The notes under the pieces: model-generated
Told to the model about the DNA's origin: nothing
What the model saw: only the letters and a program-made list of their open reading frames with translations
Databases searched by the model: none
Part shown: piece after piece, positions 1 through 55,556 of the stretch
Numbering within the stretch: the stretch's first letter is position 1
Layout of the letters: every line of letters starts with the position of its first letter
Made by a program: the position numbers and the translations under genes
DNA from: a virus
Lineage: Duplodnaviria > Heunggongvirae > Uroviricota > Caudoviricetes
DNA length: 64,000 nucleotides
Virus record (IMG/VR): IMGVR_UViG_2917886563_000007
Strand: one strand, 5' to 3'

Positions 1-708
1 CCGACCACTGAGCCCGCCCTTAATCAGGTTCTCCTGAATACGCTGGTATGTGGTCCACAGATCATTGCTCTCATCCTGCCAGCGGCGTGGGGAGAGTATC
101 TGAGGTGCTGTCACCGGCTGGTGGTCCTCACCGAAACGGTACGTCAGTGCAGCCTGTGCCAGAGCCTGTTGTGCAGGTGGCGTCAGCATCAGCGACTGCA
201 TGGCATCCCGCTTCTCTTCCACACGGTCAAAAATCCCCAGCACTTCATACGCTCCTTCGATCACCTGACTCACCACATCCCCTTTGTGCGGCACACGCAC
301 CTCGCCAAACGACTCACCGCAGACGAGTCCGTTCTGGCATACCGCACGGAATAATCCCGGTAGCATCTGATACGAGCTGGAGCCGTCGTGAGAATTGAGC
401 AGAATAATTTCCGGGACCTGCTTACCGGTAATCTGCCCCTCCCGACGCAGGCGCAGCATGTGCTTTGTATGCTCGCGACGCCCTGGGTCAGGTACTCGAG
501 TCTGGCAGGCAAAGAACGGCTGAAAGCCTTCGCGCTGCAGGTTTTCAAGTACAGTAATTGTTGGTATCCAGGTATACCGGGCACTCCGGGACGCATGCTT
601 CTCCTCACTGAACACACTGGGTACCACGCGATACAACTCTTCACGGGTTAACGGCCGGTCACGACGGATAAGATTTGCTGCGCCAAAGCGCGAAGCCAGA
701 CGGGTCAT
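1..708 (-). CDS. DUF932/YfjQ-YafZ family island protein (N-terminal ~236 codons; 3' end lies beyond window start)
   Basis: Minus-strand ORF with ATG at 706-708 (MTRLASRFGAANLIRRDRPLT...), open to the window edge; N-terminus resembles cryptic-prophage YfjQ/YafZ proteins as recalled; sits downstream of the YfjP-type GTPase as in CP4-57. Confidence 0.6.
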   Translation of the reverse strand, partial: MTRLASRFGAANLIRRDRPLTREELYRVVPSVFSEEKHASRSARYTWIPTITVLENLQREGFQPFFACQTRVPDPGRREHTKHMLRLRREGQITGKQVPEIILLNSHDGSSSYQMLPGLFRAVCQNGLVCGESFGEVRVPHKGDVVSQVIEGAYEVLGIFDRVEEKRDAMQSLMLTPPAQQALAQAALTYRFGEDHQPVTAPQILSPRRWQDESNDLWTTYQRIQENLIKGGLSGR

Positions 709-801
709 AAGCAGACTCCTCATGATGGAAAATACATACAAAAAGCCCCGCCGCAAAATCGCGGCAGGGCTCAGGAAACTACGGGTTGGAATGGTTAATG
801 T

Positions 802-1665
802 TCAGAAGAAGAAATCCCAGACTGCACGGGCGACTGATACCACGATGTTGCGTACAGACTGGATAACTGTCCGAACCGGGGCCGGTATGAGTGGCAGGGA
901 ACTTACAGTGTCCAGTACCGAGCCTACTGTTTCACCAAAATCGTCACGGGCTTTTTTATTAACGGCATCGGTACGAAGAGGAGCACTAAGCTGTACCGCT
1001 ACCGGGCTACTGGCCTCACGCGGAAGGCAACGAATCATACGCTCTGCCATCACCCGCAGTCCCCAATGCAGACGAACCGACACCGCACAGATCGGATTTA
1101 CTGGTTGGAATAACTCATGCAGCAAGCAGATTTTGCGACTGATGTTCTGCTTTTGCTCCCTGGAGAGCTTATCACCGCCGCTGGTGGGTTCAGCCTTATC
1201 CGACTGACTGATAACAAACAGCACCTTATGTCGGTAAGCCTCCCCAATTACCTGATGGTAAAATTGTTCATCCACCCCCAGCGCCCGATCATCAGCCTTA
1301 ATCAGCCACAGTACCAGGTCGAGCCGGGGAAGTTGTTCGCGATACAGGGCGGCGTATTCAGTATCGCGCAAACTACTTTCCCCCACGCCTGGTAGATCAA
1401 CAAGGGTCATAACGCTCTCGCCCACTTGCAGGCTAAATTGTAAGGGGACGCGTGTGCAGGCGACTACATCGCTAACCGGTGAAACCTCACTGGCAAACAG
1501 GGCATTGCACAACGACGATTTTCCTGCCCCGGTTTTACCCATAATGCCGATCACAGGCTCGTAGTGAGTAAGCTGGTTTATCTGCTGCAGAATACGCTCC
1601 GATGCCCATTGCGGCAGGTCGGAAAGCGAGTCCTGCAGGTCAAGTAGACCTTCAATTTTTTTCAT
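802..1665 (-). CDS. YfjP/YkfA/YeeP-family GTPase of cryptic prophage islands
   Basis: ORF-track protein with P-loop GIMGKTGAGKSSLCNALF and DLPG motif; likely start MKKIEGLLDL at 1665 preceded by a GGAG RBS. Confidence 0.8.
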   Translation of the reverse strand: MKKIEGLLDLQDSLSDLPQWASERILQQINQLTHYEPVIGIMGKTGAGKSSLCNALFASEVSPVSDVVACTRVPLQFSLQVGESVMTLVDLPGVGESSLRDTEYAALYREQLPRLDLVLWLIKADDRALGVDEQFYHQVIGEAYRHKVLFVISQSDKAEPTSGGDKLSREQKQNISRKICLLHELFQPVNPICAVSVRLHWGLRVMAERMIRCLPREASSPVAVQLSAPLRTDAVNKKARDDFGETVGSVLDTVSSLPLIPAPVRTVIQSVRNIVVSVARAVWDFFF

Positions 1666-1939
1666 CTCAACTCCGCTGAAAAGTAAAACATAAAACGGTA
1701 AAACCAAATGGTTTTACCGTTTAAAAGGAAATGTTCAGGGGAATGATATATATCTTAATGTTTTTAGAATGGATTCATATATGATGTTGATCTTATTCAA
1801 GATATCCTAGAGTATCATTCTGTTGATAACATATTGAATTTGGTTAAAATAATTGAGCCTGATATCCCTTTTTACTGAATTTCAAGAGGTATTGGGTTGT
1901 GTTCGTTCGCCCAATTCTATTGATGACAAGGAAAAGCAA

Positions 1940-4900
1940 ATGGTTAGTAGCCAGTATCCCCGGGGTTCAGAATGGCATAAGTGGGATTTACATATTCACA
2001 CTCCAGCATCTTTTCATTGGAATGGCCCGAGATTTAAGTCAGATCCACGCTCACCAGAGAACGCCCCACTAGTGGATGCAATGATCAATGCTATGAATGC
2101 AGCAGAACCAATCGCATTTGCGATTATGGATTATTGGACCTTTGATGGATGGTTTGCGTTAAAACATCGATTGACGCAAGAAGATGCCCCCAAGCTAGAA
2201 AAAACCGTTTTTCCTGGAATTGAATTGCGGTTGATGGCGCCAATGCGTGGAAGGCTAAATGCTCACGTTCTTTTTTCTGATCATATACCAGATCAGGAGC
2301 TTATTGATTTCAAGAGTAAACTAGAGGTTGCTCTAATAAATAAGTCATTATCAGATTCAGCCTTAATCCAAATAGCTAGGGAGGCTGCACCAGATAAATT
2401 GCGGCATCATAGTCTCAACCAACAAAAGATTCTTCAATCTGATGCTGATGCTCTCAAGGCTGGTTCAATAATAGCCGAGGTTACATGTGAGAGTTATCAA
2501 AAAGCAATTAACAGTGTCAGCAAAAATCAAGCTATTGGGTACATGCCATTTGATACCAATGATGGGCTTACTGAAATTGAGCGTAACGCGCATTATGCAT
2601 TCGCATTAACTCTTTTCAAGACATCACCAATATTTGAAACAAGGGATTATGCTACGTGGGCAGCTTTCGCTGGTGTAAAGGTCCCTGAAAATGAAAGGTG
2701 GTTTGATGCTTTTCAAAAGGCTTTAAATAATAAACCTAGACTTGCTATTTCAGGGAGTGATGCTCACTGCTTTGTTGGAGAACCTGGTAACAATGATCGC
2801 CGAGGATATGGTGACTACCCTTCAGGAAAGGCAACATGGATAAAGGCTAATCCAACATTTGACGGATTAATGCAAGCAATAAGAGAACCAGCAAAACGTT
2901 CATTTATTGGTGCTATTCCTAAAAAACGGAAATTAGTAAGCGAAAACAGAAGTCTATTTATTGAAAAGCTAGAAGTTAAAAAATCAATTGATTCATCAAT
3001 CAATGAATCCTGGCTCGACAATACGGATATACATTTAAATCACGATTTAGTCGCTATTATTGGTAATAAAGGTAGTGGTAAAAGTGCATTGGCTGATATT
3101 GCAGCGTTGCTTGGTAACTCTAAACAAAGTCATCATTTTTCCTTCCTAAAGGAAAATCGATTTAGAGGAAAAACAGGTGAGCCAGCACGTCACTTCAATG
3201 CAAAAATAGTATGGAGTGATGAAAAAGAGTTAACAAAAAACCTTAATGATAATCCAGCAACTGAAAATGTTGAATTAATAAAATACATTCCACAAGGCCA
3301 TTTTGAAGAGTTGTGTAATGCTCATGTATCGGGCCAATCAGATGCATTTGAAAAAGAACTAAGATCTGTAATCTTCTCACATGCAGATGAATCTATACGC
3401 TTAGGTGCTCATGATTTTGAAGATCTGATAGAAAAGCAGGAGAGCTCTCTTCGAAGCCAACTAGAAAGCTATCGTAGTGAGATGCATAAACTCAATGAAC
3501 AAGTAATGTTTATTGAGAGCCAAATGACCGATGAAGCAAAAAAAGCACTTGATGAAATGTTGGCTCAAAAAGTTAGATTACTGGAAGAGTTGATCAAAGC
3601 AAAGCCAGAAGAAGTTCCTGAACCATCTAATGAGCTTACACAGGAACAACAACAAATATCTGAACAGCTATCAAACATCAATCAAGAATTAGAAAAGTTA
3701 CAGAAGCAGCAAGAATCAGACCTAGAAGAACTTACAAAGTTAGCCGGAAAGAGAAAAGCAAGCAAGAATATTAAGGCTGGTTTTGAAATCGTCAAACGTG
3801 CAGTTAATCAATTTGTGTCAGAGTTTGATTCAGATGCTAAACTCCTTGGTTTGGATATAGAGAGTTTAGTTAGAGTTGATGTTGATGAAAAAACTCTCTC
3901 TGCATTAGACGATGCTGGTTCACTTCGTGAAAAAGAAATCAAAGAACGTCAATTAACCCAAGTGGCTAGTAAACAATTAATTTTGGAGAAAAAAGCTCCA
4001 CTAAATGCACAGTTGAATGCCCCACAACAAGCATACCAGTTGTTTAAAGAACAGCTCAAAGCTTGGGGTGAGAAACATGCAGCATTATTAGGAAACAAAG
4101 ATGATCCAGATACACTCGAAGGTATCAAGCATAGAATATCTAAACTGGAGCAACTTCCAAGTCAACGATTAGAATTACATGAGAAACGAAACGATTTGAC
4201 TCGAAAAATTTTTACAATTCTTAATGAGCAAAAAGAGAATCGTGAAACCCTTTTCGAACCAGTACAATCACTTATTCAAAATAATATTCTTATCCGTGAT
4301 GAATACAAACTACAATTTAGAGCTGAACTAAGTAGCACTGCAGATCTAATTTCAAATAGATTATTTTCCATTGTTAAGCAAGCGTCGGGTGAATTTAGGG
4401 GCGAATCAGAGAGTCTTTCAGTAATTAAAGACCTTATGGATCGACATGATTTAAATGACCAAGAATCTTTACTCATGTTTGTCCAGGAATTGCACAGAAA
4501 ACTAGAGAGTTCTTCTAAGAATCCAGTTGGTGTAGCTTCATTGTTACGCAAAGATCGTACAGCTAATGAAGTTTATGACCTTATTTTTGGCTTAGAGTAC
4601 CTTGAGCCAAGATATACATTAATGTTTCAAGATGCTCAAATAGGACAATTGTCTCCTGGACAAAGAGGGGCCTTACTTCTGATTTTCTATCTGCTTGTGG
4701 ATAAAGGAAATACACCAATAATTCTGGACCAGCCTGAAGAGAATCTTGACAATGAAACTATTGTTAGCCTGCTTGTACCTGTTTTAACGGAAGCAAAGCA
4801 AAAACGACAGATTATTATGGTTACACATAATCCGAATCTTGCAGTTGTTTGTGATGCAGAGCAAATTATCCATTGTGAGTTTGATCGCACAAAGGGGCAC

Positions 4901-5014
4901 AAAATAACATATACCCCAGGAGCTATTGAGTGTAGCGTAATTAATAACAAAGTGGTTGATGTTCTTGAAGGAACTATGCCTGCATTTGATAATCGTAGAA
5001 TGAAGTATATGTGA
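1940..5014 (+). CDS. PHP-domain phosphoesterase fused to SbcC/Rad50/OLD-like ABC ATPase with central coiled coil; candidate single-gene defence nuclease
   Basis: ORF track starts at a TTG at 1853; more likely start is ATG 1940 after an aagga RBS. PHP motifs DLHIHT (1985-2002) and GSDAH (2753-2767); Walker A GNKGSGKS (3062-3085); Lys/Glu/Gln-rich heptad-like region about 3400-4300; ABC signature LSPGQRG (4649-4669); Walker B IILDQPEENLD (4718-4750); H-loop VTHN (about 4820-4831). Visibly AT-rich. Confidence 0.75.
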   Translation: MVSSQYPRGSEWHKWDLHIHTPASFHWNGPRFKSDPRSPENAPLVDAMINAMNAAEPIAFAIMDYWTFDGWFALKHRLTQEDAPKLEKTVFPGIELRLMAPMRGRLNAHVLFSDHIPDQELIDFKSKLEVALINKSLSDSALIQIAREAAPDKLRHHSLNQQKILQSDADALKAGSIIAEVTCESYQKAINSVSKNQAIGYMPFDTNDGLTEIERNAHYAFALTLFKTSPIFETRDYATWAAFAGVKVPENERWFDAFQKALNNKPRLAISGSDAHCFVGEPGNNDRRGYGDYPSGKATWIKANPTFDGLMQAIREPAKRSFIGAIPKKRKLVSENRSLFIEKLEVKKSIDSSINESWLDNTDIHLNHDLVAIIGNKGSGKSALADIAALLGNSKQSHHFSFLKENRFRGKTGEPARHFNAKIVWSDEKELTKNLNDNPATENVELIKYIPQGHFEELCNAHVSGQSDAFEKELRSVIFSHADESIRLGAHDFEDLIEKQESSLRSQLESYRSEMHKLNEQVMFIESQMTDEAKKALDEMLAQKVRLLEELIKAKPEEVPEPSNELTQEQQQISEQLSNINQELEKLQKQQESDLEELTKLAGKRKASKNIKAGFEIVKRAVNQFVSEFDSDAKLLGLDIESLVRVDVDEKTLSALDDAGSLREKEIKERQLTQVASKQLILEKKAPLNAQLNAPQQAYQLFKEQLKAWGEKHAALLGNKDDPDTLEGIKHRISKLEQLPSQRLELHEKRNDLTRKIFTILNEQKENRETLFEPVQSLIQNNILIRDEYKLQFRAELSSTADLISNRLFSIVKQASGEFRGESESLSVIKDLMDRHDLNDQESLLMFVQELHRKLESSSKNPVGVASLLRKDRTANEVYDLIFGLEYLEPRYTLMFQDAQIGQLSPGQRGALLLIFYLLVDKGNTPIILDQPEENLDNETIVSLLVPVLTEAKQKRQIIMVTHNPNLAVVCDAEQIIHCEFDRTKGHKITYTPGAIECSVINNKVVDVLEGTMPAFDNRRMKYM

Positions 5015-5024
5015 TGTTTGCATA

Positions 5025-5066
5025 AAACTGCCCATCTATAAGTTTTAGATGGGCAGTTTCTTTCGA
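5025..5066 (+). terminator. Rho-independent terminator after the PHP-ATPase gene
   Basis: Inverted repeat ctgcccatcta / tagatgggcag (5028-5056) followed by a T-rich run. Confidence 0.6.
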
Positions 5067-5195
5067 AGTTACCGGGGGCACATTGGCAGTGCGATAAATC
5101 AATAATATCTTTTATGATATTCGGATTTATATTATGGAATGATATAAGTGCTTATAAACTTTTACTGGAATTTAATGGGGTTGTATTATAACCAA

Positions 5196-5816
5196 CTACC
5201 CTCGACTGCATCCGAAATTTCTGTCACCTTCACCAAATATTTTTGTATCTAACTTGGTTAAATAGTCTAGACGGGTGAGAAGGTCGTTATACACAATGTC
5301 AAAATCCGGATCGTTAACATTCAATACATATCTACAATTCTCCGGGAAATGAACCAGATTCCTGCAATCCTCAGGTTCAAGATTAAGAGCACTATACCAT
5401 GCTCTAGTTATCATATTAGTGAGCGTACCGCTATGTTCATGATGACCCAAGTGATAGTAAGCATCTTTATTGAAAAATAGACAAGTGTGAAAATGACATT
5501 TTCCACTCTGCGTGTATTCCCTTGCCCAGAGTTGGCGTATTGAATTTGGTTTTATTCTAATCCCAGCGCATACTCTACGGTTTTCACTAGCAGCTAATAT
5601 AGCTTTTAATGAATTTATAAAGCGAGATATTGCTCCAGGTTCAAGATTATGAAAACAACAAACTGTGTCGCCATTATCAAGGATTTTCGGATAATGAAGA
5701 TCAACCCTTAACGCCATAGTTTTGGAGAATTGATGAATAGCATTGTTAATCACGGTAGCAATATTGTCTCTATAAGAGATGATATGATTGCCATGAGTAC
5801 CATTATAGATTTTCAT
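5196..5816 (-). CDS. YfjJ/YagK-family protein (island backbone gene)
   Basis: 206-aa ORF; family resemblance to K-12 cryptic-prophage YfjJ/YagK recalled from memory; position between YfjI-like gene and cargo matches CP4-57 order. Confidence 0.55.
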   Translation of the reverse strand: MKIYNGTHGNHIISYRDNIATVINNAIHQFSKTMALRVDLHYPKILDNGDTVCCFHNLEPGAISRFINSLKAILAASENRRVCAGIRIKPNSIRQLWAREYTQSGKCHFHTCLFFNKDAYYHLGHHEHSGTLTNMITRAWYSALNLEPEDCRNLVHFPENCRYVLNVNDPDFDIVYNDLLTRLDYLTKLDTKIFGEGDRNFGCSRG

Positions 5817-6038
5817 AATAATAAGACCATAGTTGCTCTTATCTTAAATAAGAGCATGTTGATTAATATCTTTTCTATAGAGCAAATGAATTAATGTTTT
5901 GGCAATCACATACAACACTTCTATTAGTTATCAATAGAAACGACAATATATTACCTTTCCACCACCATTTACCTATATCAGGTCTGTTCCAGCCTAAAGA
6001 TTACGAGTGCAATTCGCTCTGCATTTAGCTTTGTACTT

Positions 6039-7484
6039 TTACACGATGTATTGTGTGCTGATAGATTGCATATAGTCTATATCAGGACCGATATATAAAG
6101 ATCTTCCACGTTTAGCTATTCTGATTTTTCCTTGCTGAACTAAAATTTCCAATAAACCATCTGCGACTTTCTTTCTTCTCAATCGATTAGGTCCAAAGGA
6201 GTAAATTAACACTTTGTTAAAATAAATTATGGAGTTGTCTTCGCAATATTTTATAACCCAGTTAAATAATTCTTCAGAATCAACTTGTTCCTCTTTTTTA
6301 TCTAGGAGCTTAGGAGGTGAAAATATACGGATATATTCATCTGTAAACCAAAGTGTAATTTCAATTGCTGCCTCTATGGCTTCTAAAGAAATATCACCTT
6401 CCCCATGGTTAAAATAAAATAGAAGTGCTGATATTCTTGCTGCATTTTCTGCAATTTTAGAAGCATAATCTTTGATGTCAGAAAATAATCCAAATCCAAG
6501 CATCCCCATTTCGGACTCTACTTGATTATGAAATTGTATCCATCTTTCTTGTGCTTCCGGAGAAAAGTAGAGGCAGGTCCGTTTGCTGTTTTTATTTGAT
6601 GCAATGTTTGTCTTAATAATCTCCATTAATCTCTTATGAAACAATGGAAGATGTTCATTTGAAGTGACTGGGTTAGTTATTGTTCTGTAACCTTGTTTCG
6701 AGTGAGGTTGACAAATCAAAAATCGATTGAATATCCCAATTCCCTTTGCTATATCACCTTTATTTTTAATATATCTGCTAATAACGCTAGGTTGCGCCAT
6801 CAATCCTGCTGTTAGGGTTGCATTTTTAATTAATCTATCCGGTTCATTCTTTCTTTGCAGTGTGTATGTAGAACCATCCCACATTTTGTTGAGGAAGGGT
6901 AAGTCACCTAGGATATAGCCATTAAATACAGTTCCTGCTTCATCAGAAAAAATTCCGACAGAACGCCAATGACCGGAAAGATAATCTTTTAAAGCAGCGG
7001 GTGTCGCGTCATTAAATATCATCCTATATTTTATTGGTTCTTCTGGGTAAGAAGAAAGAAGTTCTTCAAGTCTTTTACGATGCTCAGAAATATCTCTATT
7101 GCAGCGAATGTCTGACTTGATTTTTGCTATAATTAATTTCTTTTCAATATCTATTATTTCAATTGTGTTTTTGTATGATAGCATTTCATTTAGATGCTTT
7201 TCAAATAACAATTCTTCAAATTCATATATCGGGTTAAATATTTGTTTGTAAACACCTGTTTTCCTTTCTCCAGAATCGGCGATTGTCAACAAATATAATG
7301 ATGCAGGGCCAGTAATGTTATTTATCCTACATACATCTATACTATTCTGACAGGCTAAAGAAATGGCACTTAGTATAGCTGAAGAAATCAATGATAGTGG
7401 GGCTTGAGTATGCTGTTCTACTTCATAGACAGCATTTCTGGCTAGTGAGGGCAGCGTGTGTACAGGGAAATTTTTATCTAACAT
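6039..7484 (-). CDS. YfjI-like large island protein (possibly DUF3987 family)
   Basis: 481-aa ORF immediately downstream of alpA in the same orientation, as yfjI in CP4-57; family assignment from memory only. Confidence 0.5.
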   Translation of the reverse strand: MLDKNFPVHTLPSLARNAVYEVEQHTQAPLSLISSAILSAISLACQNSIDVCRINNITGPASLYLLTIADSGERKTGVYKQIFNPIYEFEELLFEKHLNEMLSYKNTIEIIDIEKKLIIAKIKSDIRCNRDISEHRKRLEELLSSYPEEPIKYRMIFNDATPAALKDYLSGHWRSVGIFSDEAGTVFNGYILGDLPFLNKMWDGSTYTLQRKNEPDRLIKNATLTAGLMAQPSVISRYIKNKGDIAKGIGIFNRFLICQPHSKQGYRTITNPVTSNEHLPLFHKRLMEIIKTNIASNKNSKRTCLYFSPEAQERWIQFHNQVESEMGMLGFGLFSDIKDYASKIAENAARISALLFYFNHGEGDISLEAIEAAIEITLWFTDEYIRIFSPPKLLDKKEEQVDSEELFNWVIKYCEDNSIIYFNKVLIYSFGPNRLRRKKVADGLLEILVQQGKIRIAKRGRSLYIGPDIDYMQSISTQYIV

Positions 7485-7496
7485 AATAACCTCCTT

Positions 7497-7733
7497 TCAT
7501 CGTTTTTCTTCAGAAGCGAAGAGAGTGTGGATATAGCTTTGAACGTCATCCCAGAGCCAGTAGTTTTTTTTGTTAATTTTTTTTGGTCTTACCAAACCAG
7601 ATGGTAATTGATCTTGGCACAACCATTTTCTGATTGTTTGCGGTTTACAATTCAACAGTTGTGCTAAATCATTAGTAGAAACAAGTCGGATGTTGCTTGG
7701 AGATGATGCTTCACTTATTTGAAATTTGCTCAT
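7497..7733 (-). CDS. alpA: AlpA-family phage/island transcriptional regulator (excisionase-like HTH)
   Basis: 78-aa protein MSKFQISEASSP...LLNCKPQTIRKW...; AlpA-type HTH; located next to a P4-type integrase. Confidence 0.8.
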   Translation of the reverse strand: MSKFQISEASSPSNIRLVSTNDLAQLLNCKPQTIRKWLCQDQLPSGLVRPKKINKKNYWLWDDVQSYIHTLFASEEKR

Positions 7734-8206
7734 GATGCCACCCCGGAGATAAAAACGTGGGCAAATGAAGCAATAGGTAGGACGCAGGCTTTGTTTAAGA
7801 GATAGGAGGCGTTTAAGGAAAGGATAGAGAATAAGGAGGATGATCTGAGTACACTTGCAGGCTCGGGATCACCACCTTCACTTGAACCGGTGGAAAAAGA
7901 TCCCTTTGCTGACTTGGTGCTACTACGATGCGCTCTCGAGGTATGAGTTTTAAATGGCACTGAACGAGAAATCACGTTAGCTAAAGCAATTTTGCATGCC
8001 TTGTTTCGTACATTTTTCCGATAAATAGCCTGATCCATTACATGAAGGGCGACTTTCTTATAGTGGTTTTTAAACCATTGCTCAATGGGGAGTCCATTAG
8101 ATGATGGTGAATGGTATTGGATTTCAAAATTGATCTCGGGCAGTCCAAGCAGATTCGCCAGAATCTCTTGACTATCATCTAACACGGGGTTGTAACTATT
8201 AAACAT
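7730..8206 (-). CDS. Hypothetical island protein between integrase and alpA
   Basis: 158-aa ORF whose stop overlaps the alpA start; no recognisable motif. Confidence 0.4.
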   Translation of the reverse strand: MFNSYNPVLDDSQEILANLLGLPEINFEIQYHSPSSNGLPIEQWFKNHYKKVALHVMDQAIYRKNVRNKACKIALANVISRSVPFKTHTSRAHRSSTKSAKGSFSTGSSEGGDPEPASVLRSSSLFSILSLNASYLLNKACVLPIASFAHVFISGVAS

Positions 8207-8334
8207 TCTGATATTTCTCCTCTAGGGTCGTGAACTAATGAGGCGATTTTTATCCAAGTTTCAATATCTGTCAATAACTCTTTTATTTTTCAGGGTTAAT
8301 GTAACATATTGATATTTAATGAAATCAACGCGTA

Positions 8335-9651
8335 TCAACACTCGATTTTTTCATAAATAGAGGCCTGTTCTAAGATCCAGCTCTCAATTTTTTCATGCCA
8401 TTTACGCAACAAATCTAATGGACGACGACGGTAGTGTTTCTCAGCTAGAGCACTAGGTTTATGGCCCATAATCTGCGCAACTATGCCAGTTGGCACTTCG
8501 ACCCATTCGGCGAGCGTACCAAAACTACGACGTAATCCATGCAGGCTGATGTGTGGTAATTCAGCCTTAGCTAAGGCCCGATTGTGTGCGGAACGCGGTT
8601 CAATAATTTTGCCGCTTTTGCTATTACTCCTGAAAACCCAATCCTCCTTATTTACGTCAGAATTTGGTGTTTGCACCAATGCGCGTAACAGGTGAGTGAC
8701 ATAAGGAGTAAGAGGTATGATACGTTCGCCTTCGATCTTGTCTTTAATCCGCATACTTGACCATTTGAAATCGACGTCAGACCACCGAAGTGACGCAATT
8801 TCTTCGCGTCGCGCTCCGGTGAGTAAAAGTACCTGGAGATAGGCCGATGCAATGGGATTGTTGAGGTTACGCACGGCACTGAACCAGCTTTTTAACTGTT
8901 CTTTTTGTAAGCAATCTCCCGCTTTACTCGCTGATACTGGAACCAATTTTCTCACGTTATGATCTTGTGCAAGATCGCCATGGATTATTCCCTGATATTT
9001 TTTCTGGTAATTAACCCATTTGATAAATGCACGCAACAGACGGTAGGCATGAGCAGTGACGGTAGGCCGATTTTGTCTTTCTGTACTTAGCCATGCGGCA
9101 ATGTTCTCTGGTGTTAGTTCCGATAACGGTAGGTCGAGCAAGCTAGCCAATGGTCCAGCCGAGGTTGGGCCCCGGCCTCTTTTTTTACTTTCTCCTCCAC
9201 GGCTGGACAAGTTCACGTGATCGGCAATATAACGTGCAGAGTAAGGACGTTTAGTTTTTGCGCTGATTCCGGTTCTCAATTCTTGAAGATAATCTTCCCA
9301 AGCGCTTGAGAAGGTTACCTTCGTTTTACGAGATTCAGCCTGCTGTGATTCCGCTTCAGCAATTTTTTCTGCTTTAGCTATACGCGGATCTATCCCAGTA
9401 TCGATTAATGTTTGCAGCCGCCTGGCTTCGGCCCTGGCATCATCAATCCTCCAATCGTTAATGTTGCCAATGGTCATGCGAAGGGTTTTTCCCGCATATA
9501 CGCTTTGGAACACAAAAGCTTTTGTTCCGCGAGTTGCCCGGCATGCCAGAGTTGTTACATCCGCATCCCAAAGAAATGCTTGGTTTTTCCCTTCAGTTAA
9601 AGCAAATTTTCGAATACGCTCGAAGGTGAGTTTTTGTCTCGGAAGTGCCAT
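8335..9651 (-). CDS. int: P4-type tyrosine integrase
   Basis: Likely start MALPRQKLTFERI at 9651; C-terminal tyrosine-recombinase motifs (ARREE, HGLRRSF, GHK...Y); adjacent to a tRNA-Thr 3' fragment. Confidence 0.9.
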   Translation of the reverse strand: MALPRQKLTFERIRKFALTEGKNQAFLWDADVTTLACRATRGTKAFVFQSVYAGKTLRMTIGNINDWRIDDARAEARRLQTLIDTGIDPRIAKAEKIAEAESQQAESRKTKVTFSSAWEDYLQELRTGISAKTKRPYSARYIADHVNLSSRGGESKKRGRGPTSAGPLASLLDLPLSELTPENIAAWLSTERQNRPTVTAHAYRLLRAFIKWVNYQKKYQGIIHGDLAQDHNVRKLVPVSASKAGDCLQKEQLKSWFSAVRNLNNPIASAYLQVLLLTGARREEIASLRWSDVDFKWSSMRIKDKIEGERIIPLTPYVTHLLRALVQTPNSDVNKEDWVFRSNSKSGKIIEPRSAHNRALAKAELPHISLHGLRRSFGTLAEWVEVPTGIVAQIMGHKPSALAEKHYRRRPLDLLRKWHEKIESWILEQASIYEKIEC

Positions 9652-9833
9652 TTTTGGGCTCCAGATGAGAAAGGTTACATCACCATAATGTAACGGCTGG
9701 TGTAAGTAAATTAGGGGAATACACATCAACACCTGTCAATTTTTATCAACAGGTGTGTTTTATAAGTTAATGTTTTATAATGAACTAATTGTTTTAAGAG
9801 TAGGTTTTTAAAGGGGTAAAAGTATAATAACGT

Positions 9834-9884
9834 CGCATTCGTAATGCGAAGGTCGTAGGTTCGACTCCTATTATCGGCACCATC
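9834..9884 (+). repeat. tRNA-Thr (thrW-type) 3' fragment; direct repeat, attL of lambdoid prophage and right-end repeat of the P4-like island
   Basis: cgcattcgtaatgcgaaggtcgtaggttcgactcctattatcggcacca matches the anticodon-to-CCA half of tRNA-Thr(CGU) as recalled; the upstream sequence does not match the 5' half, so not an intact gene. Confidence 0.8.
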
Positions 9885-9896
9885 TAAATCAATAAG

Positions 9897-11060
9897 TTAC
9901 ACATCATTAGTACCTTCCTTATTTTTTGACTGGGACAAATTTGGGACCGATGGGTTCAGGATCGAGTCTATTTGCCGTGCGTGTTCGGTAAGGTGATTAG
10001 GTGCAAGGTGAGCATATCGACGAACCATTTCGATAGACTCCCAGCCTCCCATTTCCTGTAACACTGACAACGGGACTCCGGCTTGAACCAGCCAACTTGC
10101 CCAGGTGTGTCTCAAGTCGTGAAATCTGAAATCATCAATACCAGCCCGTCTCAGCGCCGCTTTCCAGGCTGTGTTTGCGTCATACCGCATCTTCCTTACT
10201 GTTGGCGCTTTCGTTCCGTCTGGTTTGGTACAGCTTTCCTTGTACACAAATACCCAACGGTGATGATTCCCGATTTGTTTTTTCAATACGCGACATGCAG
10301 TATCATTCAGCGCAACGCCAATTGCGCGGTTTGATTTACTCTCTTCCGGGTTTATCCATGCCACCCGGCGCTGCATATCTATTTGTTGCCATTCAAGGTT
10401 GATGATGTTCGAGCGTCTTAAACCTGTTGCCAGTGCAAATTCAACAACAGACTTTAATGGCTCCGGACATTCATCAATCAGCCTTTGTGCTTCATGAGGC
10501 TCCAGCCAGCGGATCCGTTTATTCTTTGGTTGAGGCACTTTAATAATTGGTGCCTTATCCAGCATTTTCCATTCACGCTCTGCGGCTCTTAGCAGGGCCT
10601 TTATAAATGAAAGATGCGTTGCCTTCGTTGCAACGGACGCTGGTTTTGGCGTGTATTCTGGAACTGGTTTCCCTTTTTTTCTGCATGCTTCTGCCCTGAG
10701 TTTCCAGTTTTCCTCATGACGCCGGTTCGTCATTTTCTGCATTGCTGAATAAATTTTTGATTCAGTAATGTCTCTTAGTTGCATTCCTGCGAAATGTTGA
10801 AGCCAGAATCCGATCCGGCTTTTGTCATCGTCCAGTGATTTTTTATGTGCTTTCTCTTCGAGCCACCTGACACACGCCTCCTCGAACGTCATATCAGGTA
10901 TTTCACCAAGTTTGCTGACCCGCCATGCTTCAGCCTTTAGCTTGTCATGGAGCTCTGTCGCCTGCCTTTTGTCCTTTGTTCCAAGAGACTGTTTAAATCT
11001 TTTACCGTTCGGCAATGTGAAACTGGCGTACCATATTTCACCTCTGCGGAAGAGTGACAT
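9897..11060 (-). CDS. int: Phage tyrosine integrase, P22-type (thrW-specific)
   Basis: 387-aa protein [24 protein letters not shown]... close to P22 Int as recalled; stop lies 13 bp from the att repeat. Confidence 0.9.
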
Positions 11061-11287
11061 TTTCTTTCCTCTGTTATGCCATCACCCGCGCTCACCTGGA
11101 CAGTATGCAGCGGAGACTGAAGCGCCGCAATGCAGGCTTGTCGTGTTGTGAGGTAAGGAGATTTTGGTTTAGTGGGGTCTTTGCGTGTTGCCTGTAGGCG
11201 GCCTGTTCGTATCCAGTTGGTAGCGGTAGGTCTGGATATCTTGAGAAACTGACAGGCCTCATCGAGTGTGAGGCTGTATGATTCCAT
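10937..11287 (-). CDS. xis: Excisionase (P22 Xis-like)
   Basis: Start [31 protein letters not shown] at 11287; overlaps the int 5' end. Confidence 0.8.
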
Positions 11288-11537
11288 GGTTACCTCTGCT
11301 TTTTGAACGCATGTCACGTAACTTCTTAATGTGTTCTGCCGTTTCGATCTCTTCTGCTATCCGATCTGCATCAGCTTTATTCACAGGTTCAAAGTCATGA
11401 TTAAAGCGGAACATGCTGGCGATACATGTTCTGCCTTTTCGGATGTAGTGAACTTTGTTGTGAGTGGAACGCAGGATTTTGCAGGGAGTGCCGTGTTGGT
11501 CGACGTACCAGGTGTTAGGGTAAATCACTCTGAACAT
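11259..11537 (-). CDS. Hypothetical early-region protein
   Basis: 92-aa ORF in the early leftward operon; start uncertain. Confidence 0.4.
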   Translation of the reverse strand: MFRVIYPNTWYVDQHGTPCKILRSTHNKVHYIRKGRTCIASMFRFNHDFEPVNKADADRIAEEIETAEHIKKLRDMRSKSRGNHGIIQPHTR

Positions 11538-11850
11538 TCTTGGCCTTGTGTTGTGCGGATTGATATTCAGTGCTGATATTCACCTTTATAGCGAACACCT
11601 TTACCGGTTTATCGCCAAAGTGCGGATGTGTGATTGTCTTCACTTCATATCCGTCATACGGAACATCAATTCTGCGACTGAAATCGTCACGCTTCGGATA
11701 TCCCTTCGTGATGATCAGACTGCCATACTCGCGGTTAACGAGGCGCTTTTTCCAGTAGTCATTAACAAGGCGATACTCTTCCGTTTTCTCTCCGCGAATC
11801 ATGGCATCGAAGTATTCACTTTTAACAGCAAGTTGCAGGTTAGCCATCAC
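11515..11850 (-). CDS. Hypothetical early-region protein
   Basis: 111-aa ORF, stop/start coupled to neighbours. Confidence 0.45.
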   Translation of the reverse strand: MMANLQLAVKSEYFDAMIRGEKTEEYRLVNDYWKKRLVNREYGSLIITKGYPKRDDFSRRIDVPYDGYEVKTITHPHFGDKPVKVFAIKVNISTEYQSAQHKAKNVQSDLP

Positions 11851-12068
11851 TTAATCCCCCTTTGTTTGCGGATAAGCTCCAGATCTTGCTGGCAACTGGC
11901 ACAAGTCCGACAACCCTGAACGGCCAGTCGTCTTCGTTCATCTATCGGATCGCCACACTCACAACAATGAGTGGCGGATACAGCCAGGTGGTTCAGACGG
12001 CGCATTTTTATTGCTGTGTTGCGCTGTAATTCTTCGATTTCTGATGCTGAATCAATGAGGTCTGCCAT
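11847..12068 (-). CDS. TraR/DksA-family C4 zinc-finger protein
   Basis: 73-aa protein with CCECGDPIDERRRLAVQGCRTCASC four-cysteine motif. Confidence 0.7.
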   Translation of the reverse strand: MADLIDSASEIEELQRNTAIKMRRLNHLAVSATHCCECGDPIDERRRLAVQGCRTCASCQQDLELIRKQRGIK

Positions 12069-12164
12069 CTCATTAATCCCTGAATTGTTGGTTAATACGC
12101 GTGAGGGTGAATGCGAATAATAAAAAAGGAGCCTGTAGCTCCCTGATGATTTTGCTTTTCATGT

Positions 12165-12380
12165 TCACCGTTCCTTAAAGACGCCGTTTAACATGCCGAT
12201 CGCCAGGCTTAAATGAGTCGGTGTGAAGCCCATCAGCGTTACCGTTTCGCGGTGCTTCTTTAGTACGCTACGGCAAATGTCATCGACGTTTTTATCCGGA
12301 AACTGCTGTCTGGCTTTTTTGATTTCAGAATTAGCCTGGCGGGCAATGCTGCGAAGGGCGTTTTCTTGCTGATGTGTCAT
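12165..12380 (-). CDS. Hypothetical small early protein
   Basis: ORF-track protein; start choice (12380 or upstream) uncertain. Confidence 0.3.
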   Translation of the reverse strand: MTHQQENALRSIARQANSEIKKARQQFPDKNVDDICRSVLKKHRETVTLMGFTPTHLSLAIGMLNGVFKER

Positions 12381-12456
12381 TGAACAAGTCCCATGTCGGC
12401 AAGCATAAGCACACAGAATATGAAGCCCGCTGCCAGAAAAATGCATTCCGTGGTTG

Positions 12457-13014
12457 TCATGCAGCCTCCCGACGGGCAAGAATCCTTGAGCCGAACGCCA
12501 TCAACTCGCCACGATCAACGGTCGTAAAGTGGCAGTGTGTACGGGGGTATGGGTGCCAGATAATGAGCATCGAGCCTTTATTATTTCCACTCACGGGTTT
12601 CCCGGTGAGTGGGTTAATAAATGCCAGTCGTCCTGCCGTGATGAATCTGACCTCACTGGCGGTTTGTATCGCTTCATGAAACCATCCGACAGATGTGTCA
12701 GCAGGCAGTAACATTACACATCCCACACTACTGAATTTGTTTTCAGTGGCTGCCTTTTTCACAAAAGGGGAAATATTGCTGTATGGTGGATTCAGCCAGA
12801 CATAACCAGAGGCATATCCCATTGCTTCAGGCCATGAAGTGGTTAATGTGTTCTGCTCCTGTGAGATAAAAAGCCGACATAGCCGGTTTTTTTCGTTGGC
12901 TGCAGCATCAAGTTGAAAAACGAACTCTGCATTAAGCGCAGCAAAAATCTCTGGTGGTGTGCGCCAGCTGTCGCGATGTTCGGCAGGAGTATTGCTTCCG
13001 GTGAAATCAGTCAT
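12457..13014 (-). CDS. Phage DNA N6-adenine methyltransferase (Dam-like)
   Basis: 185-aa protein with WRTPPEIF and LNPPYS (NPPY) motifs. Confidence 0.8.
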   Translation of the reverse strand: MTDFTGSNTPAEHRDSWRTPPEIFAALNAEFVFQLDAAANEKNRLCRLFISQEQNTLTTSWPEAMGYASGYVWLNPPYSNISPFVKKAATENKFSSVGCVMLLPADTSVGWFHEAIQTASEVRFITAGRLAFINPLTGKPVSGNNKGSMLIIWHPYPRTHCHFTTVDRGELMAFGSRILARREAA

Positions 13015-13165
13015 ACAGCCCCCCGTTTATTATTTATCTCCTCAGCCAGCCGCTGTGCTTTCAGTGGATTTCTGATAACAGAAAGGCCGGGAAATACCCA
13101 GCCTCGCTTTGTAACGGAGTAGATGAAAGTGATCGCGCCTACCCGGATATTATCGCGAGGATGCT

Positions 13166-13846
13166 TCATCGCCATTGCTCCCCAAATACAAAACCAATTT
13201 CAGCCAGTGCCTCGTCCATTTTTTCGATGAACTCCGGCACCATCTCGTCAAAATTCGCCATGTACTTTTCATCCCGCTCAACCACGACATAATGCAGGCC
13301 TTCACGCTTCATGCGCGGGTCATAGTTGGCAAAGTACCAGGCATCTTTTCGCGTCACCCACATGCTGTACTGCACCTGGGCCATGTAAGCCGACTTTATG
13401 GCCTCGAAACCACCGAGCCGGAACTTCATGAAATCCCGGGAGGTAAACGGGCATTTCAGCTCAAGGCCATTGCCGTCACTGCATAAACCATCGGGAGAGC
13501 AGGCGGTGCGCATACTTTCGTCGCGATAGATGATCGGGGATTCAGTAACATTCACGCCGGAAGTGAATTCAAACAGGGTTCTGGCGTCGTTCTCGTACTG
13601 TTTTCCCCAGGCCAGCGCCTTAGCATTAACTTCCGGAGCCACACCGGTGCAAACCTCAGCCAGCAGGGTGTGGAAGTAGGACATTTTCATGTCAGGCCAC
13701 TTCTTTCCTGAGCGGGGCTTTGCTATCACGTTGTGAACTTCTGAAGCGGTGATGACGCCGAGCCGTAATTTGTGCCATGCATCATCCCCCTGTTCGACAG
13801 CTCTCACGTCGATCCCGGTACGCTGCAGGATAATGTCCGGTGTCAT
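13166..13846 (-). CDS. exo: Lambda-type exonuclease (Red alpha)
   Basis: 226-aa protein [40 protein letters not shown]... essentially lambda Exo as recalled. Confidence 0.95.
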
Positions 13847-14628
13847 GCTGCCACCTTCTGCTCAGTGGCTTTCTGTTTCAGGAATCCAAGAGCTTTCGCT
13901 GCTTCGGCCTGTGTCAGTTCTGACGATGCACGAATGTCGCGGCGAAATATCTGGGAACAGAGCGGCAATAAGTCGTCATCCCATGTTTTATCCAGGGCGA
14001 TCAGCAGAGTGTTAATCTCCTGCATGGTTTCATCGTTAACCGGAGTGATGTCGCGTTCCGGCTGACGTTCTGCAGTGTATGCGGTATTTTCGACAATGCG
14101 CTCGGCTTCATCCTTGTCATAGATACCCGCAAATCCGAAGGCGAGACGGGCACACTGAATCATGGCTTTATGCCGTAACATCCGTTTGGGATGCGACTGC
14201 CACGGCCCCGTGATTTCTCTGCCTTCGCGGGTTTTGAATGGTTCGCGGCGGCATTCATCCATCCACTCGGTAACGCAGATCGGATGATTGCGGTCCTTGC
14301 GGTAAATCCGGCATGTACAGGATTCATTGTCCTGCTCAAAGTCCATGCCATCAAACTGCTGGTTTTCATTGATGATGCGGGACCAGCCATCAACGCCCAC
14401 CACCGGAACGATGCCGTTCTGCTTATCAGGGAAGGCGTAAATTTCTTTCGTCCACGGATTAAGGCCGTACTGGTTGGCGACGATCAGCAATGCGATGAAC
14501 TGCGCATCGCTGGCATCGCCTTTAAATGCTGTCTGGCGAAGAGTGGTGATCAGTTCCTGTGGGTCGACAGAATCCATGCCGACACGTTCAGCCAGCTTCC
14601 CTGCCAGCGTTGCGAGTGCTGTACTCAT
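13843..14628 (-). CDS. bet: Lambda Bet (Red beta) single-strand annealing protein
   Basis: 261-aa protein [37 protein letters not shown]... as lambda Bet. Confidence 0.95.
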
Positions 14629-14633
14629 CCGTT

Positions 14634-14930
14634 TTATACCTCTGAATCAATATCAACCTGGTGGTGAGCAATGGTTTCAACCATGTACCGGATGTGTTCT
14701 GCCATGCGCTCCTGAAACTCAACATCGTCATCAAACGCACGGGTAATGGCTTTTTTGCTGGCCCCGTGGCGTTGCAAATGATCGATGCATAGCGATTCAA
14801 ACAGGTGCTGTGGAAGACCTTTTTCCATGTCGTCTGCCAGTTCTGCCTCTTTCTCTTCACGGGCGATCTGCTGGTAGTGACGCGCCCAGCTCTGAGCCTC
14901 AAGACGATCCTGAATGTAACAAGCGTTCAT
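14634..14930 (-). CDS. gam: Lambda Gam (RecBCD inhibitor), short form
   Basis: 98-aa protein [56 protein letters not shown]... as lambda Gam. Confidence 0.9.
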
Positions 14931-15005: not shown

Positions 15006-15212
15006 TTAGTGATTCAGGCCGTTGCCGCGTCCGTCAAGAAAAACTTCCACGAGCAAGTCACGGGTATAAGTGCGCTCGATGCCGCGATGCAGATAAAGCC
15101 GTCCGCGTAAATTAGCTGATGCTGTCCAGGTACCATCTTTGTGTTTGACCAGCATTCCTGGCATGACCGCACCGCGATTAACGGTCTGCGCTCCGTAATG
15201 TTGATGAACCAT
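15006..15212 (-). CDS. Hypothetical small protein in the kil/cIII position
   Basis: 68-aa ORF downstream of gam; overlaps an alternative-frame ORF; identity not established. Confidence 0.3.
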   Translation of the reverse strand: MVHQHYGAQTVNRGAVMPGMLVKHKDGTWTASANLRGRLYLHRGIERTYTRDLLVEVFLDGRGNGLNH

Positions 15213-15769: not shown

Positions 15770-16156
15770 TTATTGGGCTTTAATGTAATTTTTCAACTTT
15801 GCAGTTTGCTCTACAGCGCTAGGAATGCATCCAAACATATTTGCGCATGAAGTTTGAACAACAATTTCGTTCTTATCGTTTCCTAAAGGTGTTTTTACAA
15901 CCTGATATCCAAGCACGGCACTATTTCCAATAGGAGTGTATGTGGAAATTACCGTTTCATCTGCCATCTGAATTTTCCAACCAGAATTCATTGCTATCCA
16001 AGCTTTGGCTCTCGACCAATATGTATCGCATTGCTCTTTACCTTGACAGTAAACTGGTTGTTGAGCTTGTGCGGCAATTTGGGGATCTATTTTCTGAGCA
16101 CATCCAGAGATGCTAATCAGAATAGCTGCTGTAACGAATAGTTTTCTCATTGACAT
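15770..16156 (-). CDS. Predicted lipoprotein in the rex position downstream of cI; candidate lysogen-expressed exclusion/moron protein
   Basis: N-terminus MSMRKLFVTAAILISISGCAQK has a signal peptide and lipobox ISGC; gene starts ~45 bp downstream of the cI stop on the same strand (start 16156 or 16150). Confidence 0.65.
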   Translation of the reverse strand: MSMRKLFVTAAILISISGCAQKIDPQIAAQAQQPVYCQGKEQCDTYWSRAKAWIAMNSGWKIQMADETVISTYTPIGNSAVLGYQVVKTPLGNDKNEIVVQTSCANMFGCIPSAVEQTAKLKNYIKAQ

Positions 16157-16198: not shown

Positions 16199-16891
16199 TT
16201 ATCCGTGTTTTCTATATGTCTGCGGCATGCTTCCAATGACTTTACCGAAGATGAACACTCGGTTCATCTCGTCTTTCTCGATCGGGTCCCACGGTGAGTA
16301 GCTCTTGTTATCAGAGATAACCAGCAGCTTATCCTTCATCATTTGCAGGCGCTTTACATGGGCTGTGTCGTCGTACAGAAACGCATAGATACCATCACCG
16401 TCGAAAGATTTAACTGTGATATCAACGAACAGCAGATCACCTGGTTCGATCGTTCCTGACATGCTGTCACCGCGCACGTTAATGATGCGGATATTTTCCG
16501 CCTTCCTGCCATCGAACATGTGACGAGCATCGTCAAACGAGTACTCAACCGAGCGTAGAACTTCTACAAACTCACGATTGATGACACCCGGCCCGGCACT
16601 GACTTCTATATCAAGAACGTCAATCTTGAAGTATTTGGAATGGTTGACAGCAGGCTTTTCTGATTGTTGACCGTCATTTCTCATCGGGCCTATGCCTGAC
16701 GAGAGCCACTCTGTTCGAACACCCAATGCATTAGCTATTTCAACAATTTTTGTTGAGCCGCGCGCGTTGCCGCTTGTCAGTCTCCAGATTGTGGGTTGAG
16801 CTACGCCAGACGCCTTTGCAAGAGCGCCTTGAGACATTCCAGATTGTTCCATCGCTAGGTTTAAGCGATCAGCAAGAGTTTCTTTTTTCAT
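16199..16891 (-). CDS. cI: CI-type prophage repressor (HTH_XRE + S24 LexA-like peptidase domain)
   Basis: Start MKKETLADRLNLAMEQSGMSQGALAKASGVAQPTIWRL at 16891; C-terminal S24 domain (RGDSMSGTIEPGDLLFVD ... VKRL); divergent from cro. Confidence 0.85.
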   Translation of the reverse strand: MKKETLADRLNLAMEQSGMSQGALAKASGVAQPTIWRLTSGNARGSTKIVEIANALGVRTEWLSSGIGPMRNDGQQSEKPAVNHSKYFKIDVLDIEVSAGPGVINREFVEVLRSVEYSFDDARHMFDGRKAENIRIINVRGDSMSGTIEPGDLLFVDITVKSFDGDGIYAFLYDDTAHVKRLQMMKDKLLVISDNKSYSPWDPIEKDEMNRVFIFGKVIGSMPQTYRKHG

Positions 16892-17000
16892 AAGTTTTAA
16901 TTTATACGCTTGCGTATTGATGGTCAAAAACGTTTTGCTATTGCTTGAGTTAATACGCATTGCTATTATCTATTTATTGCAATACCAATAGGAATTGATA
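16892..17000. promoter_or_regulatory. cI/cro divergent promoter-operator region (candidate OR)
   Basis: Palindrome ATACGCTTGCGTAT (16904-16917), repeated half-site ATACGC (16953-16958), palindrome TATTGCAATA (16976-16985) between the divergent repressor genes. Confidence 0.5.
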
Positions 17001-55508: not shown

Positions 55509-55556
55509 ATTCGTAATGCGAAGGTCGTAGGTTCGACTCCTATTATCGGCACCATC
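55509..55556 (+). repeat. tRNA-Thr 3' fragment, second direct repeat (attR of lambdoid prophage)
   Basis: attcgtaatgcgaaggtcgtaggttcgactcctattatcggcaccatc repeats the 9834-9884 sequence; no tRNA 5' half upstream. Confidence 0.8.

Follow-up and report, generated by a model that had tools for sequence, protein, structure and literature searches.

The window analysed here, a stretch of 64,000 nucleotides of viral DNA, carries on its minus strand a gene (hereafter the dam-like gene) that probably encodes an intact orphan N6-adenine methyltransferase of the phage Dam family, most likely directed at GATC, which would be expressed early and protect the replicating phage DNA. As a second, unrelated and probably GATC-specific methylase in phages of Dam+ enterobacteria, such an enzyme bears on anti-restriction and possibly on the evasion of mismatch repair during recombination. 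The gene itself is of a known type, well populated and routinely annotated, and it confirms the presence here of a solitary Dam-family methylase, as in hundreds of other E. coli prophages, which amounts to a correct annotation and little beyond. Coordinates of the gene, its motifs and its neighbours are collected in Table 1.

Table 1. Features of the prophage region around the dam-like gene, in window coordinates.
Feature	Position	Strand	Basis
attL, 48-bp direct repeat, 3' half of a tRNA gene	9837..9884	+	repeat search
Integrase	9897-11060	-	ORF list
Excisionase	10937-11317	-	PHROG/profile typing
DUF4222	11259-11537	-	Pfam
PHROG 625 ORF	11515-11850	-	PHROG
DksA/TraR zinc finger	11847-12068	-	Pfam, PHROG
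Terminator-like hairpin and T-run 3' of the orf61-like gene	12126..12144	-	consensus scan only
orf61-like gene, 71 aa	12165-12380	-	PHROG 303; 'orf61' in PhiR30_1; RefSeq gene model
Hydrophobic 27-aa ORF (MTTTECIFLAAGFIFCVLMLADMGLVQ), unannotated	12377..12460	-	ATGA overlaps to dam stop and orf61-like start
dam-like gene	12457..13014	-	ORF list, PF05869, TIGR01712, PHROG 111, PADLOC oMTase, fold, pN/pS
Residues 127-147 (AGRLAFINPLTGKPVSGNNKG), conserved loop resembling a hairpin and flanked by two strands, candidate element for DNA recognition	12574..12636	-	alignment and AF2 secondary structure
Motif IV NPPY, residues 75-78, catalytic adenine-binding motif	12781..12792	-	sequence; invariant in both alignments
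FQLDAAA, residues 33-39, first beta strand of the model, putative AdoMet-binding motif I-like segment	12898..12918	-	D36 and A39 invariant; strand 33-38 in AF2 model
orf60a homologue (DUF1317)	13011-13175	-	PF07026, E=7e-33; 'orf60a' in phage PhiR30_1
exo	13166-13846	-	Pfam YqaJ, PHROG
bet	13843-14628	-	Pfam RecT, PHROG
gam	14634-14930	-	Pfam Gam, PHROG
kil homologue	15006-15212	-	PHROG 294, E=1.5e-36
128-aa low-GC ORF	15770-16156	-	ORF list
cI-type repressor	16199-16960	-	homologous position annotated 'S24 family peptidase' (RefSeq homologue) / cI
attR, second 48-bp repeat copy	55509..55556	+	repeat search

Family, conservation and distribution of the dam-like gene

The initial annotation had described a Dam-like methyltransferase with an NPPY motif, and this description holds in every part: the ORF runs exactly over 12457-13014, from ATG to TGA, encodes 185 residues (ORF list of the window), and NPPY can be read directly from the sequence as residues 75-78. 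The protein, which contains VWLNPPYSNISPF, matches over their full length, and above the curated thresholds, two family HMMs, namely, Pfam PF05869 'DNA N-6-adenine-methyltransferase (Dam)' (E=2.3e-56; 190.5 bits against a gathering cut-off of 28.1 bits; profile positions 1-168 of 169) and NCBIfam TIGR01712 phage_N6A_met, an equivalog model for 'phage N-6-adenine-methyltransferase' (166.9 bits against a cut-off of 97.05 bits; profile positions 3-165 of 165). It also matches PHROG 111 'DNA methyltransferase' (E=7e-78), and these family matches are well past chance level. Together with NPPY, an N-terminal W-x-TP and an LD-x-x-A segment are present, and W17, T19, P20, D36, A39 and N75-P-P-Y78 are invariant with respect to the VT2-type, HP2 and Tls enzymes and 43 closer homologues. 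The predicted architecture is that of a small single domain (about 170-240 aa in the family) with an AdoMet-methyltransferase fold and without a separate target-recognition domain; little is present beyond the catalytic domain itself. On these sequence features, the dam-like gene is a real and intact member of the T1/HP1/VT2 phage 'Dam' family of N6-adenine DNA methyltransferases.

In an alignment of the protein with a VT2-type Dam (YYZ-2008 gp34), HP2 Dam, the T1-like Tls Dam and five closer homologues, all 30 invariant columns are kept in the dam-like protein. They include S7, T9, W17, T19, P20, D36, A39, N43, the NPPYS block, P83 and D106, as well as S108, W111, F112, E121, R129, F132, G138, N144 and K146. 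The last five of these lie in the loop formed by residues 127-147, where they are identical in the dam-like protein, YYZ-2008 gp34, HP2 Dam and Tls Dam, and we infer that this loop is the best candidate for the DNA-recognition element of the protein. An AlphaFold2 model built from 43 homologues reached a pLDDT of 74.6 and a pTM of 0.76, with residues 1-10 and 39-53 being unreliable. A search of PDB chains with the protein, by sequence and by profile, returned no match, which indicates that the PF05869 family is without a solved structure. With regard to selection, relatives at 72-86% protein identity display pS values of 0.76-0.88, corresponding to saturated synonymous sites, and pN values of 0.085-0.19, and a comparison with near-identical copies gives a dN/dS of 0.06-0.08. 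The dam-like gene is under strong purifying selection, with a pN/pS of about 0.1.

The same gene, at 95-99% nucleotide identity, is found in 312 of 5426 complete E. coli genomes, and among the matches listed it is annotated as 'phage N-6-adenine-methyltransferase' beside a 'DUF1317 family protein'. The isolated phage PhiR30_1 has an identical layout (kil-gam-bet-exo-orf60a-MTase-orf61-TraR-...-int), with the gene already annotated. The 90% cluster of the nearest database relative holds 537 sequences, and the whole family comprises 8564 clusters at 50% identity (E<=1e-3), with matches in 2067 phage records. Close relatives either carry a C5-cytosine methylase as an N-terminal fusion (the product of related locus L010, with PF00145 and PF05869, has 619 aa) or are followed by the gene for one.

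Operon setting and orphan status

The gene lies between two 48-bp direct repeats, which bound a lambdoid prophage of about 45.7 kb and bear out its description as prophage-encoded. Prophage genes that could be typed include replication genes, NinB, RusA, Q, tail-fibre genes, an antirepressor, a LysR regulator, and a zinc dehydrogenase, while the sizes of other prophage ORFs fit, by size alone, lysis, terminase and tail genes. On the opposite strand of the nin region, a low-GC ORF of 240 aa (20968-21690) shows only a weak match to an invasin Ig domain. An island adjoining the prophage encodes a 1053-aa SMC/AAA ATPase with PADLOC matches to Ppl, AriA and mad3.

The neighbours of the dam-like gene are all on its own strand, in the order kil-gam-bet-exo-orf60a-dam-orf61-DksA/TraR-...-xis-int, and the locus corresponds to the 'exo-xis' segment that lambdoid phages carry in their leftward early operon. 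This agrees with the placement of the gene among early genes: in the direction of transcription, gam, bet, exo and orf60a precede it, and the orf61-like gene, DksA/TraR, xis and int follow. The preceding exo, bet and gam genes of this operon form a Red recombination module (13166..14930). In lambda and VT2-Sakai, the order at the same place is exo-orf60a-orf63-orf61, and here dam occupies the orf63 slot. The gene junctions are tight: the dam ATG is overlapped by the orf60a TGA (GTATGA), a Shine-Dalgarno-like GGGGG run precedes this start by a few bases, the dam TGA overlaps the ATG of the 27-codon ORF, and the TGA of the latter overlaps the orf61-like ATG. The 27-aa ORF is identical in E. coli 2016C-3878 and PhiR30_1, and thus offers no variation for a coding test. 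An ATGA overlap between the methylase and the next gene, whatever this next gene is, occurs in 15 of 22 related genomic loci, so that translational coupling into the operon is a conserved feature. To judge from these ATGA overlaps, translation of the dam-like gene is coupled to both neighbours. A promoter scan of the region yielded 8 promoter-like sites, against 10 expected from shuffled sequence, and neither pL nor an N-type antiterminator could be firmly located in the prophage.

The initial annotation had further noted the lack of a cognate restriction gene nearby and taken the methylase for an orphan, and both points are supported by the survey of the locus and its relatives. The best PADLOC model for the dam-like protein is 'oMTase' (orphan methyltransferase; 3.9e-32), and none of its neighbours matched a PADLOC defence model. 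No restriction endonuclease was recognised by Pfam or PHROG among the immediate neighbours, the lambda-type Exo being the only nuclease. Beyond these neighbours, the scan extended to the nin region, the cargo at the right end, further non-structural ORFs of the prophage and the adjacent island, and again no restriction enzyme was recognised, nor any defence match among these further prophage ORFs, with the limit, inherent to HMMs, that small or novel nucleases can escape detection, which applies to the 27-aa ORF, the PHROG 625 ORF and the ORFs at 20968-21690, 53831-54274 and 54687-55169. The SMC/AAA ATPase of the island was discarded as a restriction partner, since its gene is not part of the prophage and its product is no endonuclease.

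The survey was extended to about 100 related loci, namely, 22 prophages of other Enterobacteriaceae and 80 IMG/VR viral contigs with close relatives of the methylase (72-99% identity). Among their neighbours, no recognised restriction family was found in the 20 commonest or largest neighbour clusters, the viral-contig census covering relatives of at least 72% identity, i.e., the exo-xis sub-clade only. The neighbour clusters include DksA/TraR (45 loci), an orf61-like cluster (38 loci), DUF1317 (36 loci), YqaJ exonuclease (35 loci), DUF4222 (27 loci) and Bet (24 loci), the orf61-like and Bet clusters having been recognised via the window's own genes. RecT, integrases, NinX and C5 methylases are also among them, and seven clusters had no family match. 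The gene 3' of the methylase varies by locus (orf61-like, C5 methyltransferase, Xis-like, or other), and so does the 5' gene. The methylase is therefore kept while its neighbours change, which is the behaviour of a solitary gene and not of a restriction-modification module. Membership of a Type II restriction-modification system was rejected, no candidate endonuclease having been recognised. With no restriction endonuclease recognised and the methylase retained among changing neighbours, the dam-like gene is, on its gene context, an orphan (solitary) phage methyltransferase.

Target site and biological role

T1 Dam and HP1 Dam are GATC-specific and, to our knowledge, the PF05869 members with an experimentally assigned site (T1, HP1 and VT-2) are all GATC-specific. 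The specificity of T1 Dam was reportedly established by Auer and Schweiger in 1984 and Schneider-Scherzer et al. in 1990. The dam-like protein shares 47% identity with VT2-Sakai orf32 over 178 aa, 45% with T1 Dam over 164 aa, 41% with Tls Dam, and 40% with HP2 Dam. Bases 1-26000 of VT2-Sakai contain a single annotated methyltransferase, orf32, located between ninB and ninE, and this was taken as M.EcoVT2Dam, an orphan methyltransferase; GATC specificity is predicted for the M.EcoVT2 homologues (REBASE-based; PMC6602927). In view of the 40-47% identity to the T1, VT2 and HP2 Dams and of the conserved candidate recognition hairpin, the target of the enzyme, if active, is most likely GATC, an assignment that we hold with reasonable though not full confidence. 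The GATC content of the prophage (113 observed vs 190 expected) gives a ratio of 0.59, a moderate under-representation that is similar to those of CTAG and GGCC and is therefore uninformative on specificity.

A flipped-adenine mechanism is general to (D/N)PP(Y/F/W) amino-methyltransferases. In the dam-like enzyme, N75-P-P-Y78 would hold the flipped adenine while its N6 receives a methyl group from AdoMet. Judging from its position, the gene would be silent under cI repression of the prophage and expressed after infection or induction. Early-only expression is proposed on two grounds, namely, the location of the gene downstream of the leftward early region under cI control, and the lack of any better-than-chance promoter of its own; since pL and an N-type antiterminator are not firmly located, we infer the timing. 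The most likely job of the enzyme would then be to keep fast-replicating phage DNA fully methylated where host Dam is limiting, and progeny DNA, bearing the 'self' mark of the host, would be shielded from methylation-sensitive restriction at the target site. The fusion or adjacency of a C5 methylase in relatives fits a putative DNA-protection cassette. GATC-specific methylation-sensitive restriction systems are not known to be common in enterobacteria and, host Dam being present, the benefit of a second GATC methylase is uncertain. The function of phage Dam enzymes has been described as 'still not well understood' (PMC7556043).

It is unlikely that an enzyme of this same family recognises a site other than GATC, and acts as an anti-restriction methylase against a particular enterobacterial system rather than as a mimic of host Dam. 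Identity to characterised enzymes is just 40-47%, the loop formed by residues 39-60 is variable and modelled with low confidence, and the C5-cytosine methyltransferase fused or adjacent in close relatives has the look of a multi-specificity cassette. Other specificities (GANTC or non-specific) can be displayed by unrelated phage methylases, but the two compared here, phiLM21_p027 and phiP27 L24, are outside the family. The GANTC-specific phiLM21_p027 has no PF05869 match and no similarity to the dam-like protein, a statement that holds, among GANTC enzymes, for phiLM21_p027 alone. The non-specific phiP27 L24, a homologue of OS31_p25, belongs to PF01555 and is unrelated (BLASTP E=3.5, no similarity), and Hia5 has been described as a D12/Dam-related DPPY enzyme (PMC3299994). 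Within the family, R129, F132, G138, N144 and K146 are invariant between the dam-like protein and GATC enzymes and every member known to have an experimentally assigned site points the same way, all of which argues for GATC.

A second alternative, which is compatible with GATC specificity and differs in the biological role proposed, appears improbable. Hyper-methylation of GATC during lytic growth would strip MutH of hemimethylated sites, and thereby transiently blind mismatch repair when Red (Exo/Bet) acts on diverged DNA. The dam-like gene, like most of its close relatives, is separated from the preceding gam-bet-exo genes of its operon by a single small ORF, a RecT/Bet or YqaJ exonuclease gene occurs no farther than 2.2 kb away in the majority of the 80 related viral loci, and the VT2-type homologue of Stx phages directly follows, and overlaps, ninB/orf, which encodes a recombination mediator. 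Engineered co-expression of Dam and lambda Beta, moreover, makes recombineering more efficient through suppression of mismatch repair (PMC4770203). However, this linkage is not family-wide, as T1 dam lies about 7 kb from recE/erf and HP2 dam after rep, and temperate-phage early regions are so dense in replication and recombination genes that proximity is weak evidence. The C5 methylase fusion of the relatives also fits protection better. If such a role were true, Red recombination of diverged phage and prophage DNA, the source of lambdoid mosaicism, would escape anti-recombination, and the dam-like gene would parallel in nature the engineered plasmids that combine Beta and Dam for recombineering.

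The initial annotation had offered an epigenetic role beside the anti-restriction one. Such a role in lysogens is less likely, since repression should keep the gene silent there and the chromosomal GATC sites are already saturated by host Dam. In its specific form, in which the methylase is expressed in the lysogen and supplements host Dam, thus stabilising lysogeny or altering host expression, it is very improbable. Host Dam is reported as needed for stable 933W lysogeny, and the Dam homologue of the Phi24B nin region has been proposed to supplement host Dam in lysogens (PMC3342100). Nevertheless, the dam-like gene belongs to the cI-controlled leftward early region, where promoter-like sites fall short of the number expected by chance, and with a GATC target, little new information would be writable on sites that host Dam saturates. 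Finally, it is scarcely credible that the methylase represents half of a restriction-modification or toxin-like pair with an unrecognised small neighbour, or an inactive relic: restriction enzymes often escape HMM detection, orf60a, the 27-aa ORF, the orf61-like gene and the PHROG 625 ORF have no assigned function, and an MmcB-like PD-(D/E)XK protein lies just downstream in four related viral loci, but the neighbours, of 27-111 aa, are below the typical size of type II endonucleases, are conserved exo-xis genes that occur in lambda and VT2-Sakai too, there without a methylase beside them, and vary among relatives while the methylase stays; in addition, the orphan-methyltransferase model is the best PADLOC match, and the intact motifs and low pN/pS speak against a relic.

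Comparison with known Dam-type enzymes

The dam-like protein was not assigned to PF02086 (MethyltransfD12), the alpha-class family of E. coli Dam, T4 Dam and DpnM, which is characterised by DPPY, an FxGxG motif I and an inserted recognition domain. It has no detectable sequence relationship to these enzymes and no PF02086 match, and unlike them (about 260-280 aa, with a dedicated hairpin-bearing DNA-recognition domain), it has no such domain. A specificity shared between the dam-like protein and PF02086 enzymes would be convergent, as has been remarked of most phage Dam-like proteins (PMC5537653). The M.EcoGI/GII group, phiP27 L24, OS31_p25 and Hia5 are, like ours, orphan adenine methylases of phages or prophages from E. 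coli and its relatives, and are thought to be broadly anti-restriction. The dam-like protein is not a member of these non-specific methylase families (the PF01555 M.EcoGII/phiP27 L24 type and the Hia5 type), and nothing in its sequence suggests a relaxed specificity.

Within PF05869, T1 Dam (M.EcoT1Dam), the founder of the family, and T1-like Dams such as Tls carry the same motifs as ours. Unlike ours, the T1-like Dams span 237-246 aa; they are extended at the N-terminus by about 45 aa and have 14 additional residues inserted ahead of the GRLAFI hairpin. T1 is moreover a virulent siphovirus, whose dam lies in a helicase/replication cluster, unlike our prophage gene. The HP1/HP2 Dam (PF05869, 172 aa) is, as ours, an orphan of a temperate phage, encoded in its early operon. 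The HP2 enzyme, however, comes from a P2-like phage of a different host, its gene is placed after rep, and its motif I region reads LDTCA instead of our LDAAA.

M.EcoVT2Dam (orf32 of the Stx2 phage VT2-Sakai) is, like ours, a single PF05869 domain, of 175 aa, and this gene type is also present in 933W, Phi24B and YYZ-2008. The VT2-type YYZ-2008 gp34 shares NPPY and the other alignment-invariant residues with the dam-like protein. M.EcoVT2Dam is likewise an orphan in a lambdoid E. coli prophage, with a start overlapping the upstream gene, whereas it resides in the rightward nin region (ninB-ninE) and our gene in the leftward exo-xis region, and more than half of the residues differ. Between orf60a and orf61, VT2-Sakai holds orf63, and our prophage holds dam.

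Neighbours of the methylase gene in related loci

Many Enterobacter-type prophages encode the Dam domain (the counterpart of the PF05869 methylase studied here) as the C-terminal portion of a fusion protein, exemplified by a 619-residue product in the related locus L010, in which it is combined with an N-terminal C5-cytosine methyltransferase domain (PF00145). Extended ORFs of 482 to 661 residues, putative fusions by their length, are present in L088, L094-L096, L098-L100, L102-L105, L107 and L109, and in L008, L019 and L086 the dam gene is followed downstream by a separate C5 methylase gene. This arrangement in the relatives resembles a cassette of orphan methylases with two specificities.

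Among the 80 related IMG/VR viral loci, the sole nuclease-like neighbour found is an MmcB-like protein of the PD-(D/E)XK superfamily. In four of the loci (L089 and three others) its gene follows the dam homologue at a distance of some 200 nt, past the orf61-like gene; it is absent from the window.

Features of the window and of two related loci, with their coordinates
Feature	Location	Strand	Remarks
Dam fusion, 619 aa	L010 4687-6546		PF00145 plus PF05869
MmcB-like protein, 288 aa	L089 3764-4630		PD-(D/E)XK superfamily
SMC/AAA ATPase, 1053 aa	1853-5014		Second element; PADLOC matches to Ppl, mad3, AriA
YagK/YfjJ protein	5196-5816		Second element
DUF3987 protein	6039-7484		Second element
P4-type integrase	8335-9732		Second element
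48-bp perfect direct repeat	9837-9884 and 55509-55556		Prophage ends
PHROG 625 ORF, 111 aa	11515-11850	-	Between DksA/TraR and DUF4222 genes
Hydrophobic ORF, 27 codons	12377-12460	-	Unannotated
ORF, 128 aa	15770-16156	-	PHROG 16082 (unknown function)
ORF, 240 aa	20968-21690	-	nin region, opposite strand
LysR-family regulator and zinc-dependent alcohol dehydrogenase-like gene	51455-53499		Within att repeats

Small ORFs of the early-left region

The apparent gap of 76 nt between the methylase and orf61-like genes is occupied by a 27-codon ORF (MTTTECIFLAAGFIFCVLMLADMGLVQ), joined to each of them by an ATGA stop/start overlap. E. coli 2016C-3878 and phage PhiR30_1 carry the ORF with the same sequence; it is missing from the Enterobacter-type relatives, where the methylase stop coincides with the orf61-like start. 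The ORF could encode a small membrane peptide, or be merely a coupling spacer. Further downstream, the PHROG 625 ORF, which has no Pfam match, is lacking in E. coli 2016C-3878 and PhiR30_1, whose regions are otherwise near-identical, and its presence or absence is an instance of exo-xis mosaicism.

Prophage ends and the adjoining element

The prophage ends are marked by a direct repeat that matches a tRNA gene over its 3' half, with the anticodon loop TTCGTAA; this gene looks like tRNA-Thr(CGU), thrW. ARAGORN detected no complete tRNA in the window. The E. coli 2016C-3878 prophage, which has a closely related early-left region, uses a tRNA-Arg(UCU) site instead. Directly adjoining the prophage, positions 1-9800 carry a second mobile element, whose SMC/AAA ATPase is a candidate anti-phage defence gene. 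Compared with complete E. coli genomes, this flank shows no stretch above 95% nucleotide identity, the best among the matches listed reaching 86-89%.

Accessory genes within the prophage

Past the tail-fibre genes, the LysR regulator and dehydrogenase pair are non-phage cargo or the leftover of another insertion. The 240-aa ORF, of low GC content (0.36-0.39), belongs to no family in Pfam, PHROG or PADLOC, its single hit, at E=0.0035, being a weak match with an Ig-like domain of the invasin type, and it is probably a moron for a surface protein. Directly downstream of cI, and within another low-GC stretch (0.37), lies the 128-aa ORF, whose N-terminus looks like a lipoprotein signal. It is possibly an exclusion or conversion gene expressed in the lysogen, and the position that it holds is occupied in lambda by rexAB.
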